25,117 nucleotides of DNA from Flavobacteriales bacterium (GTDB lineage: Bacteria; Bacteroidota; Bacteroidia; Flavobacteriales_D; Sanyastnellaceae): assembly GCA_040261075.1 (NCBI GenBank), contig JBDQOS010000080.1, positions 1 to 25,117 of the forward strand, given 5' to 3'. Each line of letters starts with the position of its first letter. The first letter of the stretch is position 1. Below, in pieces: positions 21,344-25,117 of the stretch. The translations under genes and the position numbers were made by a program. The notes beneath the pieces were generated by a model. That model ran no database searches and had not been told where the DNA came from. It saw nothing but the letters and a program-made list of their open reading frames with translations.

Positions 21344-21422
21344 GTCTCGCAGGTGATGGCGGACAAGGTACAACGTTCAATTGAAGCGCGTTCCGAGATC
21401 TCGCGCACAGACCAACGACGAC

Positions 21423-22487
21423 TCAGGACGACTTGACGCCTTCGACGTGCAGGGTTTGGGTTGGGAACGCAAATTCAAGTCCGGCGGCGTTGAATCGCTT
21501 CAAAATCTCCAAGTTGATGTCGTTGGGAACATGCGCCCAGTGCTCCCCCTTGCGGATGAAGTAGATGGCGCTGACGTTGAGGCTGAAATCCCCAAACCCG
21601 CTGAACCACACCGTGTACTCGTCTTCCGTCCGGCCTGCCTCGGACACGATGTCGGTGAGGATGGACAAGGCCTGTTCGATTTGCTCGGGAGTCGTGTCGT
21701 AGGTGAGGCCGAGCACGACCTTCATTTTGCGCGAGGGCTCGGCCGTCACGTTCTCCACCACCTGATCTGTGAACTGGTGGTTGGGAATGGTGACGAGTCG
21801 GTTTTCCAGGGTTTTGATTCGGGTCGAACGAATGCCGATTTCCTGGACCGTGCCGTCGATGCCGTTGACTTTGATGCGGTCGCCCGCGCCGAAGGGCTTG
21901 TCAATGAACACGGTGATGCCGCCGAAAATGTTGGCAACGAAGTCCTTGGCCGCCATGGCCATGGCCAAACCGCCAATTCCGACCCCGGCGAGGAGTGCAC
22001 CGACGTCGTAGCCTGCGTTGGTCAGGCCCGAGATGATCCCAAGGATCCACACCAACGAACGCAGCGTCTTTTGAAGGATTGGGCCAAATTGCGCCACCGT
22101 GTCCCCGTCCGAGCGCTCGTCAAGGTGAAGGATGACGTTGCTTACGATGGAGTCCAACAGCCTCGCCACCAACCACGTGATGTCGATTGCAATGAGGATT
22201 TGGAACACGTGTTCCATGAATTGGTCCACGTTTTCCCCGAAGTGCAAATGCTCGTACCCCAACCAGAAGCCGAGAATCACAATGCCGAGAGCCACAGGCT
22301 CCTCAATTTGGTCGACAAGGACGTCGTCCCATTTGGTTTGGGTCTTGGCGGCAAGCCGCTTGAACACGCTCTTGAACAGCATGTACACAATGCGCGCCAC
22401 CACTGCGCTTCCCACAAAGTAGCCCAGCGCTTGGGCCCACTCAAGGAGGGGGTTGCCCAAAAACGCCGTGTCGGTCAAGAATTCCAT
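21423..22487 (-). CDS. Small-conductance mechanosensitive channel (MscS family)
   Basis: GYDVGALLAGVGIGGLAMAMAAKDFVANIFGG, DKPFGAGDRI, EIGIRSTRI, VTIPN and LEFAFPTQTLHV. Confidence 0.95.
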   Translation of the reverse strand: MEFLTDTAFLGNPLLEWAQALGYFVGSAVVARIVYMLFKSVFKRLAAKTQTKWDDVLVDQIEEPVALGIVILGFWLGYEHLHFGENVDQFMEHVFQILIAIDITWLVARLLDSIVSNVILHLDERSDGDTVAQFGPILQKTLRSLVWILGIISGLTNAGYDVGALLAGVGIGGLAMAMAAKDFVANIFGGITVFIDKPFGAGDRIKVNGIDGTVQEIGIRSTRIKTLENRLVTIPNHQFTDQVVENVTAEPSRKMKVVLGLTYDTTPEQIEQALSILTDIVSEAGRTEDEYTVWFSGFGDFSLNVSAIYFIRKGEHWAHVPNDINLEILKRFNAAGLEFAFPTQTLHVEGVKSS

Positions 22488-22535
22488 GCGCCAAACTTCG
22501 CACAAAATGCGCTTTTGCTCCCTCCTCAACGCGGG

Positions 22536-22543
22536 TATCTTTG
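22536..22543 (+). promoter_or_regulatory. -7 promoter element (TATCTTTG) with candidate -33 TTTG at 22514-22517
   Basis: Exact consensus 4 nt before the purK ATG at 22548. Confidence 0.7.
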
Positions 22544-22547
22544 CGCC

Positions 22548-23723
22548 ATGAATTCCGCTTCCTCTCCCTCACTCCCCCCCGTCGGTCCATCCCTGCGCCT
22601 TGGCGTGTTGGGAGGCGGGCAGCTGGGCCGCATGATGATTCAGGAAGCGATGAATTGGGACGTCCGAGTCGAAGTGATGGATCCGAGCGAAGAAGCCTCC
22701 TGCCGCCACCTCACGTCGCGCTTCGTCCAAGGGGACCTGCAAGACGCCTCAGCCGTGCGCGCGTTCGGGGACGGGCTGGATGTCCTCACCGTGGAAATCG
22801 AGCACGTCAGCGTCGAGGGCCTGCAAGCGCTCGCAGACGAAGGCGTTGAAGTCGTCCCTCGACCGGCTCACCTCTCCCTCATCCAAGACAAGGGCCTCCA
22901 AAAACAAGCCTACGAGCGTTGGGGCATCCCCAGCGCCCCGTACCAACTCATCGACGGCGTCGCGGACGTCGGCGCCATGGGCTTCCCCGTCGTCCAAAAG
23001 CTCCGCAAAGGCGGCTACGACGGCAAAGGCGTTCTAGTCTTGCAATCCGCAGAAGACGCCGCCGAACGCGGCTTCAACGCCCCGTCCGTGTTGGAACAAG
23101 CCGTCGACATCGACAAAGAACTGAGCGTCATCGTGGCGCGAAACGCCTCCGGAGCCACGGCCGTCTACCCCGTGGTGGAAGCCGTCTTCAACCCCGAAGT
23201 CAACCTGGTCGACCACTTGATGGCTCCTGCGGCGATTTCCGCACAGCTCGAAGCCGAAGCGCGTCACCTCGCCCTTGACGTTGTGACCTCCATGGATTTT
23301 GTGGGGCTGCTTGCGGTCGAAATGTTCTTGGACGGGGACGGCGCGCTTTGGGTCAACGAAGTGGCCCCGCGAACCCACAACAGCGGCCACCACACGATTG
23401 AAGGAAACGTCTGCTCGCAGTTTGAACAACATCTCCGAGCGGTGCTGAACCTGCCCTTGGGCGACACGTCTCCGCTTCACCCTGCAAGCGCGATGCTCAA
23501 CCTCATCGGGGCACCCGATGCCCACGGCACACCTGTGTACACGGGCTTGGAAGAGGTTTTGGCGTGGCCCAACGTGCACGTTCACCTCTACGGCAAGTCG
23601 ACGGTCAAGCCGCACCGGAAGATGGGGCACGTCACCGTCACCGGCCCAGATGTGGCCTCCGTTCAACGTGACGTGTTGAAACTTCGCGAACACCTGCAGG
23701 TCAACGGGACCAAAACCGCCTGA
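22548..23723 (+). CDS. purK: N5-carboxyaminoimidazole ribonucleotide synthase
   Basis: LGVLGGGQLGRMM, TVEIEHV, IQDKGLQK, KLRKGGYDGKG, NEVAPRTHNSGH and LYGK..KPHRKMGHVT. The 780-aa track ORF is an over-extension. Confidence 0.95.
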   Translation: MNSASSPSLPPVGPSLRLGVLGGGQLGRMMIQEAMNWDVRVEVMDPSEEASCRHLTSRFVQGDLQDASAVRAFGDGLDVLTVEIEHVSVEGLQALADEGVEVVPRPAHLSLIQDKGLQKQAYERWGIPSAPYQLIDGVADVGAMGFPVVQKLRKGGYDGKGVLVLQSAEDAAERGFNAPSVLEQAVDIDKELSVIVARNASGATAVYPVVEAVFNPEVNLVDHLMAPAAISAQLEAEARHLALDVVTSMDFVGLLAVEMFLDGDGALWVNEVAPRTHNSGHHTIEGNVCSQFEQHLRAVLNLPLGDTSPLHPASAMLNLIGAPDAHGTPVYTGLEEVLAWPNVHVHLYGKSTVKPHRKMGHVTVTGPDVASVQRDVLKLREHLQVNGTKTA

Positions 23724-23736
23724 CTTTTGAGGAAGC

Positions 23737-24753
23737 ATGGGCGCTTCCTCTCCCCTCCGCATCGCCGTCCTCGCCGGCGGTTTTTCCGGCGAAGCTGACG
23801 TCAGCCGCCGCAGTGCCGCCATGGTCATGGCGCACATGGACCGCGAACGGTTCCTTCCCTACCTCGTGAACATCGACCGCGACGGGTGGTGGACGCAAGA
23901 AGGCGACAACTCAGTGCGCTTGGCCATCGACCGTCAAACCCTCGGGTTTGAAGCGGCCAACGGCGACAAGGTGGTGGCTGACTTGGCGTTTGTCATGGTG
24001 CATGGAACCCCCGGCGAAGACGGCCTGCTCCAAGCCCACCTCGATTTGTGCGGGATTCCCCACACGACAGCGAGCGCCCGCGTCATGGCCACCACCTTTC
24101 ACAAAGGGTGGACCACCGCCTTGCTTCGCGACGCAGGCCTTCCTGTGGCGAGGTCCGTGGAATGCTTCCCGTCGGAGACGTGGGACGAAACGCGTGTGAA
24201 GGAGGTCGTCGCAGAGCTTGGACTTCCCTGCTTTGTGAAACCCAACGAATCGGGGTCAAGCATTGGCATCAGCCGCGTGACCGAAGCAAGCGAATTGTGG
24301 CCTGCGATTGAAGAGGCGCGCACCACCGGCACGAGCACGGTGTTGGTCGAGGCGCTGCTGGCGGGGCGCGAATTCACCTGCGGCGTGATCCCCGACGGTC
24401 ACGGCGGATTGCAGGCCCTGCCCGTGACTGAGATCGTGTCGCACAACGCGTTTTTTGACTTCGCGGCCAAGTACGACGGCCAAAGCCATGAAATCACCCC
24501 CGCCGAACTCGACGAACACGCGACTTCGGCCCTTCAAGAAACCGCGCTGGCGGTGTACCGCACCATGCACCTCCAAGGCATGGCTCGGGTGGACATGATG
24601 ATGGAGAAAGATGCCGCGCCCCACGTCATTGAAGTCAATGCGGTCCCTGGCTTCAGCGCCAAGAGCATCATTCCGCAGCAAGCCGCGGTCGTCGGCATCG
24701 AAAAATCCGCGTTGATTTCGCGGGTCATTGATGCCGCCCTCGACCGGGTCTAA
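23737..24753 (+). CDS. ddl: D-alanine--D-alanine ligase
   Basis: VLAGGFSGEADVS, VHGTPGEDG, FVKPNESGSSIGI, omega loop FFDFAAKY and IEVNAVPG. Confidence 0.95.
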   Translation: MGASSPLRIAVLAGGFSGEADVSRRSAAMVMAHMDRERFLPYLVNIDRDGWWTQEGDNSVRLAIDRQTLGFEAANGDKVVADLAFVMVHGTPGEDGLLQAHLDLCGIPHTTASARVMATTFHKGWTTALLRDAGLPVARSVECFPSETWDETRVKEVVAELGLPCFVKPNESGSSIGISRVTEASELWPAIEEARTTGTSTVLVEALLAGREFTCGVIPDGHGGLQALPVTEIVSHNAFFDFAAKYDGQSHEITPAELDEHATSALQETALAVYRTMHLQGMARVDMMMEKDAAPHVIEVNAVPGFSAKSIIPQQAAVVGIEKSALISRVIDAALDRV

Positions 24754-24760
24754 GGGTGGG

Positions 24761-24827
24761 CACAAAAAAAGAGGGCCACTCCGTCGAGCGACCCTCCCAC
24801 TGTTGAATGAAAACAAGTAAACTGTTA
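24761..24827. repeat. Direct repeat copy 1 (67 nt)
   Basis: Identical base for base to 25051-25117. Confidence 0.97.
24764..24796 (-). terminator. Rho-independent terminator, minus strand (copy 1)
   Basis: GAGGGTCGCT-CGACGG-AGTGGCCCTC followed by T7. The 10-bp stem needs two G-U pairs that form only on the minus strand. Confidence 0.85.
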
Positions 24828-24849
24828 ACGAAGCTTGCGCTTCAGGGTT
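24764..24849 (-). ncRNA. Candidate small regulatory RNA (~85 nt; 5' end approximate)
   Basis: Upstream TGTAACC-N16-CGTTAA, 5' hairpin UGAAGC-GCAA-GCUUCG, single-stranded U-rich core and intrinsic terminator. Confidence 0.6.
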
Positions 24850-24851
24850 CT

Positions 24852-24880
24852 TTAACGGGACCGCATCCTGAGAGGTTACA
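24852..24880 (-). promoter_or_regulatory. ECF-sigma-like promoter (-35 TGTAACC, -10 CGTTAA)
   Basis: -35 box at 24880-24874, 16-nt spacer, -10 box at 24857-24852, with A/T tracts immediately upstream. Confidence 0.5.
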
Positions 24881-25008
24881 GTTCGCTTAAAAAAATTCGA
24901 GCTTTTTTCCGGAAACGCCCATTTGACGGGAGTTTCAAGAGGTAAAAAATTCTATCTCCCGGCAAACGGGAACCAAATTTGGCCTCCGGCAGGTCCTTCA
25001 AAGGATCC

Positions 25009-25034
25009 CCATCCCGACCGACCATCCCGACCGA
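25009..25034. repeat. 13-nt tandem duplication (CCATCCCGACCGA x2)
   Basis: Exact copies at 25009-25021 and 25022-25034. Confidence 0.9.
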
Positions 25035-25050
25035 CTGGCTAGAAAACGTC

Positions 25051-25117
25051 CACAAAAAAAGAGGGCCACTCCGTCGAGCGACCCTCCCACTGTTGAATGA
25101 AAACAAGTAAACTGTTA
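25051..25117. repeat. Direct repeat copy 2 (at least 67 nt, cut by the window end); 3' part of a second candidate sRNA
   Basis: Identical to 24761-24827; period 290 nt. Confidence 0.97.
25054..25086 (-). terminator. Rho-independent terminator, minus strand (copy 2)
   Basis: Same stem-loop and T7 as 24764-24796. Confidence 0.85.

Follow-up and report, generated by a model that had tools for sequence, protein, structure and literature searches.

At the end of the 25,117-nt stretch of DNA analysed here, which comes from an uncultured Flavobacteriales bacterium and is hereafter called the window, we identified two tandem copies of an RNA gene located next to the gene for D-Ala-D-Ala ligase. We consider it probable that these are two head-to-tail sRNA genes of about 85 nt on the minus strand, each with an ECF-type promoter, whose products act in trans by pairing with start codons. 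As delineated by sequence motifs, both genes are self-contained units, consisting of an ECF-sigma-type promoter, a 5' hairpin with a GNRA tetraloop, a conserved unstructured stretch and a Rho-independent terminator. The features of the two units are listed below; the 5' end of the copy 1 RNA was inferred from the promoter.

23737..24753, plus strand: ddl (D-Ala-D-Ala ligase), convergent flanking gene (Pfam Dala_Dala_lig_C, 8.8e-50; Dala_Dala_lig_N, 2.9e-20)
24762..24798, minus strand: intrinsic terminator of copy 1, with a 13-bp stem at 24769-24798, GACG loop and U7 (terminator scan)
24764..24851, minus strand: sRNA copy 1, predicted transcribed region of about 85-88 nt (covariance model R1, 111.7 bits, model positions 1-88)
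24799..24827, minus strand: single-stranded region of copy 1, UAACAGUUUACUUGUUUUCAUUCAACAGU, candidate seed (invariant columns in alignment A1)
24828, minus strand: the only base that differs between the two RNAs, at the hinge of the 5' hairpin and the seed (alignment A1, contig L122)
24830..24843, minus strand: 5' hairpin of copy 1, GAAGC-GCAA-GCUUC, with a GNRA tetraloop (RNAalifold consensus)
24853..24880, minus strand: predicted promoter of copy 1, ECF-sigma type, TGTAAC-N17-CGTTA (motif conservation), with the -35 box TGTAAC at 24875-24880, a 17-nt spacer and the -10 box CGTTA at 24853-24857
24881..24949, minus strand: upstream part of the duplicated unit, with a T-tract and the CGTCAAATGGGCGTTTCCGGAAAAAA block (unit alignment on L122)
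24950..25050, minus strand: non-repeated spacer of about 100 nt between the copy 2 terminator and the duplicated unit of copy 1 (homologue in genome G007)
25051..25117, minus strand: 3' part only of sRNA copy 2 (truncated match of 54.3 bits; 79 bits over model positions 23-88, cut at the 5' end)
25089-25117, 25059-25088 and 25052-25058, minus strand: seed, terminator stem and U-run of copy 2
L122:2183-2300, minus strand: 5' part and promoter of copy 2

The predicted structure is specific to the minus strand, for which the fold had a free energy of -32.5 kcal/mol (z = -4.04), as compared to -19.7 kcal/mol (z = -0.76) for the plus strand. At two positions, the terminator stem has G-U pairs when read on the minus strand, whereas the plus-strand sequence gives C-A/A-C mismatches. 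A covariance model, R1, was built from the 28 units in alignment A1. Among 48 distinct sequences, for which the alignment was fitted to the model, 99.5% of the cells were paired and 11 of the 23 pairs showed compensatory changes (7 of 13 in the terminator stem and 4 of 5 in the 5' hairpin). The slid controls were paired in 44% to 63% of the cells, and none of 500 shuffles equalled the observed covariation. By its strand-specific fold and its compensatory changes, the element is thus a structured non-coding RNA. The RNA part was also the most similar segment within arrays, with 93% to 99% identity compared to 59% to 90% for the promoter interval and 54% to 64% for the upstream region, which suggests that selection or gene conversion acts on the RNA. 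There were no matches to Rfam 15 at the gathering threshold, and a search at E <= 10 gave noise only, the best match being suhB/mmgR with 18.6 bits against a threshold of 41. Judged by these comparisons, the RNA represents a new, uncatalogued family, although the kind of regulator is a familiar one.

The pattern G[TAC]AAC-N16-18-CGT corresponds to the -35 (GnAAC) and -10 (CGT) boxes of ECF-type promoters at a spacing of 16 to 18 nt. Of 47 distinct upstream regions, 45 carried it at a fixed position, as compared to 0.75% of random windows. Both motifs are also retained in low-GC genera in which the flanks cannot otherwise be aligned, and the sequence of the spacer is variable. Conserved motifs in combination with freely varying spacers and flanks point to a promoter footprint, and this footprint would tie the RNA family to an ECF sigma factor. 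The CGT -10 box has been found experimentally to be an ECF signature in Flavobacterium psychrophilum (PMC9723704). On the basis of the motifs, each unit has a promoter and a terminator of its own. In other species, the sibling promoters share the motif but have diverged spacers. The two exceptions among the 47 regions look like decaying promoters, or may belong to differently regulated siblings. Degenerate promoters in front of an intact RNA were observed at L016:1477-1593 (genome G005; GTAAT...TCGAAA) and at L006:1639-1755 (genome G010, upstream copy; CGTATC...TCGTCA).

We noted that a T-tract just upstream of the -35 box was nearly universal. Located about 30 to 70 nt upstream of the -35 box in both units, in G007 and in contig L070 was also a block, CGT(C/A)AAATGGGCG(T)TTTC(C/A)GGAAA, preceded by TGAAAC (window positions 24898-24940 on the minus strand; L122:2310-2350; L002:1385-1430). 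In G007, this block makes an inverted repeat, TGAAAC-N16-GTTTCA. The block could be a binding site for a regulator.

The genome to which the window belongs carries five ECF-like sigma genes, among which there was no clear case of an autoregulatory promoter with a matching motif. Furthermore, the strict promoter pattern was not enriched genome-wide, with 16 matches compared to 21 in a backwards control and 6 to 19 in shuffled sequences, and the count at chance level thus provides no evidence for a regulon. Several matches to the ECF-type pattern were nevertheless observed 8 to 50 nt upstream of open reading frames with signal-peptide-like starts on contigs C119, C134, C173, C174 and C183 of genome G000.

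We propose that an envelope- or stress-responsive ECF sigma factor would switch on both genes together, and that the RNAs would use the conserved single-stranded stretch to base-pair in trans. This stretch is about 30 nt long and contains ACUUGUUUUCAUUCAAC in each unit; within it, UUGUUUUCAUU is kept across the family, distant genera included. The core of the stretch, UUGUUUUCAU, shows complementarity to AUGAAAACAA, in which Lys-Thr codons come after a start codon, and pairing would therefore cover start codons. Translation initiation of the target mRNAs would thereby be blocked at AUGAAAACAA in a phylum without Shine-Dalgarno-led initiation. To our knowledge, the phylum lacks both Hfq and initiation led by Shine-Dalgarno sequences, and post-transcriptional control in Bacteroidota beyond Bacteroides is barely charted. 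The predicted masking of start codons thus bears on how sRNAs may act without Shine-Dalgarno sequences. The main effect of the duplication would be to double the dosage, and the diverged sibling promoters in sister species may permit differential tuning. Several of the genomes in the family that contain the RNA are complete or nearly so and perhaps derive from cultured strains, in which the proposal would be testable.

The searches for targets yielded nothing convincing. A whole-genome duplex scan and a scan for contiguous pairing around ATG, with wobble pairs allowed, both remained at noise level, and a duplex scan of start regions revealed no convincing target. Near-perfect targets of 21 to 22 nt, searched for in ten genomes, were only found in the sRNA genes. 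Exact matches to the 11-mer AATGAAAACAA across the genus, most of them inside a conserved coding region, amounted to about 22 outside the arrays, compared to about 14 in the control. The best site in the same genome was at the start of a gene on contig C46 for a 111-amino-acid lipoprotein without a Pfam match (-19.8 kcal/mol), and the complementarity at this site was not conserved in 19 orthologues of the genus.

We also considered that the tandem sRNA genes are real but that their products act in another manner, by sequestering a protein, by pairing elsewhere in mRNAs, or as targets of sponging by antisense transcripts that read through from ddl. The lack of a conserved start-codon target in the searches above speaks for such modes of action. 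Moreover, the invariant single-stranded stretch, about 30 nt in the genus and about 18 nt in the family, exceeds the usual length of a seed, so that another action, such as protein binding, would be possible. However, a 5' hairpin followed by an open A/U-rich stretch and a terminator is the architecture of base-pairing sRNAs. As for sponging, ddl has no intrinsic terminator of its own on the plus strand before the array, and the plus-strand hairpin is the weaker one and is not followed by a U-run; read-through transcripts would therefore be perfectly antisense to both sRNAs (window 24754-24830). Yet a search of complete genomes from the family revealed no long complementary partner, and in genomes G003 and G012 the inversion of the array has abolished the antisense relation to ddl. 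Taken together, we regard these other modes of action as unlikely, and prefer pairing in trans at start codons.

The duplication was first recognized as an exact repeat. A repeat search of the window confirmed the initial annotation in that positions 24761-24827 and 25051-25117 are 100% identical over 67 nt at a spacing of 290 nt; by chance, about 1e-32 exact repeats of this length would be expected in 25 kb. The left edge of the repeat is a true divergence (g versus c before CACAAAAAAA), and its right edge coincides with the end of the window. Since the window is an entire contig, C25, from a MAG of 306 contigs (1.72 Mb, 68% complete, 59.6% GC), position 25117 is also the end of the contig. 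Read on the minus strand, the shared 67 nt comprise the single-stranded seed stretch, the terminator hairpin and the U-run, so that the exact repeat is the 3' two-thirds of the RNA. The suggestion that the shared part covers the seed and the terminator thus holds for the minus strand, with the U-run included, and the hairpin and promoter motifs of copy 1 lie within the 223-nt interval in which its promoter and 5' end had been placed. A BLAST search revealed no third copy in the 1.72-Mb MAG. The ruvC flank, which borders the array in other genomes, was not found in the MAG, from which ruvC is absent.

Sequence beyond the contig end was obtained from public assemblies, in which a look-up with the exact Ddl protein identified L122, a JGI metagenome contig of 2368 nt from the same population, which was assembled independently and encodes an identical Ddl. 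L122 matched the window at 376 of 378 positions over the overlap and extends 122 nt past position 25117, through the whole of copy 2, which is cut by the window edge, with its hairpin and promoter. Both copies on L122 are complete, copy 2 scoring 114.1 bits and copy 1 scoring 111.7 bits against the covariance model. Over 127 nt, the two units agree at 126 positions, and consist of the 67-nt repeat, one SNP and another 59 nt that include the whole core promoter. In this genome, the units begin to diverge about 10 nt upstream of the -35 box; the next 60 nt or so are about three-quarters identical, as judged by eye on the L122 alignment. The 290-nt period also contains about 100 nt that are unrepeated. 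The idea that the copies are controlled by different promoters is not borne out here, as the -35 box, the spacer and the -10 box are identical in both.

The sole mismatch between the units adjoins the exact repeat: copy 1 has U at window position 24828, and the corresponding base of copy 2 is A. Copy 1 was the only one of the 28 units in alignment A1 with a U at the hinge, where the consensus of the genus is A. An A in copy 2 was therefore predicted before L122 was found, and L122 confirmed it. The location of the SNP exactly at the contig end indicates that the contig stops at a graph branch made by the SNP. The sequence upstream of copy 2 on L122 resembles the ruvC-proximal sequence of L070, a relative with a single copy, which makes two copies the likeliest total here; the ruvC flank itself was not recovered. 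In line with this, none of the additional copies that had been envisaged past the contig edge was present in the 122 nt recovered. A first metagenome scan with a pattern specific for the copy 2 junction gave no matches, and a second scan with the core sequence as the query gave 18 contigs.

The location of the repeat at a contig end, the breaks within the element in many related contigs and the single copy assembled in the close relative L070 are all features that could be explained by an assembly artefact, in which a loop in the de Bruijn graph, or a chimeric join at the contig end, would have produced a second copy from a single-copy genome. However, both copies lie in the interior of contig L122, where they are told apart by a SNP and have different upstream flanks, and the same two- or three-copy layout was found in L063, L064, L078 and L080, as well as in G007. 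An artefact is therefore very improbable. The caution that had been attached to the repeat was justified in that it did break this assembly, as well as about half of the related contigs, but not in the suspicion that the second copy is spurious. A circular or terminal-repeat artefact was rejected because both copies are at the same end of the contig, at a spacing of 290 nt, rather than at opposite ends.

The tandem arrangement recurs in related genomes. Arrays of two to three copies located internally on contigs were observed in at least 14 other contigs, with periods of 127 to 281 nt, and together with L122 these support the claim of at least two head-to-tail sRNA genes with identical seeds. 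In the genus, one to three tandem copies with a period of 127 to 290 nt are located in the intergenic region between ruvC (PF02075, 1e-43) and ddl. Since the copies share the predicted pairing region and the flanks diverge, the locus is, by these sequence characters, a tandem array of sibling sRNA genes. G007 has the same long-period layout with a homologous spacer (81% identity over query positions 1-311), and its array contains a gap of 99 Ns. The closest other relative, L070 (94% identity), has one copy as assembled, which could be due either to a real loss or to a collapsed assembly. About half of the related contigs end inside or beside the array. The many contigs that end at the array and the gap in G007 indicate that the repeat is a systematic assembly breakpoint, and the ruvC-ddl array should be regarded as a recurrent one in MAGs of this genus.

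In genomes G003 (L010, G003:C37) and G012 (L011, G012:C92), the array keeps its place between ruvC and ddl but is inverted in its entirety. The array is located at about 1548-1834 on L011, and the inverted sRNA genes are co-directional with ddl and oriented against ruvC, opposite to all other genomes. The inversion in place argues for an autonomous transcription unit.

BLAST searches of the 24 other genomes in the genus identified the element in 23, and just one of 16 genomes belonging to other families in the order gave a match (25 nt, E = 0.006). Of 150 genomes in the family, 84 contained full-length matches to the covariance model, representing 21 of 32 genera, and matches were found in only two of 129 genomes sampled from other families of the order. 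Outside the genus, the RNA was almost always present in a single copy, and in the low-GC genera examined it adjoined neither ruvC nor ddl. An exact-pattern scan of 185,579 species genomes yielded 24 stretches, nearly all from uncultured Flavobacteriales or Bacteroidota MAGs. One of these stretches was labelled Crocinitomicaceae and one, on a 2.9-kb contig, Comamonadaceae. The latter, L045 (CAZKGY010000246.1, 2881 nt), contains two tandem copies in a MAG titled 'uncultured Comamonadaceae', and is probably a mis-binned Flavobacteriales contig.

The closest functional parallels are the sigmaE-dependent envelope-stress sRNAs of enterobacteria, RybB and MicA (PMC1804206) and MicL (PMC4102768), together with FoxJ of Fusobacterium (PMC11005410). 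Like these, the RNA described here is short, with an ECF-type promoter, an intrinsic terminator and a conserved unstructured region that is predicted to mediate pairing, and, once the ECF sigma factor is active, its role would likewise be to shut down the production of proteins destined for secretion or for the envelope. In contrast, it belongs to a different phylum, shows no sequence or Rfam relationship to them, and is encoded by tandem genes, whereas the enterobacterial genes are single-copy. We tentatively suggest, as a possibility that we hold to be somewhat doubtful, that the RNA is a Flavobacteriales counterpart of the sigmaE-RybB/MicA loop, in which an ECF-induced sRNA, shared by most genera of the family, would mask the AUG-AAA-ACA starts of mRNAs for secreted proteins and which one streamlined planktonic genus would have amplified to two to three tandem copies for dosage. 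No description of an ECF-sigma-dependent sRNA of Flavobacteriia was found in searchable papers, nor of this RNA in the literature searched.

Sibling sRNAs in tandem are exemplified by PrrF1 and PrrF2 of Pseudomonas and by OmrA and OmrB of E. coli. Another example of multicopy sRNAs is LhrC1-5 of Listeria (PMC4132741), to which the locus is similar in that near-identical adjacent copies each have a promoter and a terminator, and in that the copy number varies among related species. One envelope-stress signal co-regulates the LhrC copies, and we infer the same for the genes in the window. However, the two RNAs are unrelated in sequence, and in LhrC control is exerted by the two-component system LisRK and CU-rich loops mediate the pairing, as opposed to the ECF-type promoter and the linear A/U-rich stretch predicted here.

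Tandem RNAs of similar size are also known in the same phylum as guide RNAs of the dCas12f-sigmaE system for RNA-guided transcription, which are 85 to 105 nt long, occur in some Flavobacteriia, are encoded immediately downstream of dcas12f and carry the guide at their 3' end (PMC13472631). The size, the tandem arrangement, the occurrence in Flavobacteriia and the connection to ECF sigma factors are shared. However, the neighbours here are ruvC and ddl rather than dcas12f-rpoE, the 3' end is an invariant terminator instead of a guide, and the units carry canonical -35 and -10 motifs. Furthermore, the Cas12f TNB domain was found above the Pfam cut-off in none of the 25 genomes of the genus, although the RNA is present in 23 of the 24 other than this one. 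That the tandem RNAs are such guides is thus extremely improbable.

It is hardly conceivable that the element encodes a small protein on the plus strand or is merely the terminator or 3' UTR of ruvC: an ATG-led frame of 27 codons is present opposite the RNA and ruvC is located upstream on the same strand in most genomes, but the substitutions keep the RNA pairing rather than the codons, each unit has a promoter of its own, the array has the opposite orientation to ruvC in G003 and G012, and the low-GC genera carry the RNA away from both ruvC and ddl. The 27-amino-acid open reading frame, which starts with ATGAAAACAAGT, was rejected because the frame is not conserved, and neither is the length: a 1-nt indel shifts the frame in G002 and G006, and a stop codon limits it to 7 codons in the G014 group and to 11 codons in the low-GC genera.

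It was also noted that the window contains an open frame of 780 codons at 21381-23723 on the plus strand, the C-terminal half of which corresponds to PurK (ATP-grasp, PurK_C), and the first 400 codons or so of which have no Pfam match. This frame probably reflects either a fusion or, the DNA being GC-rich, an ORF call that is too long.
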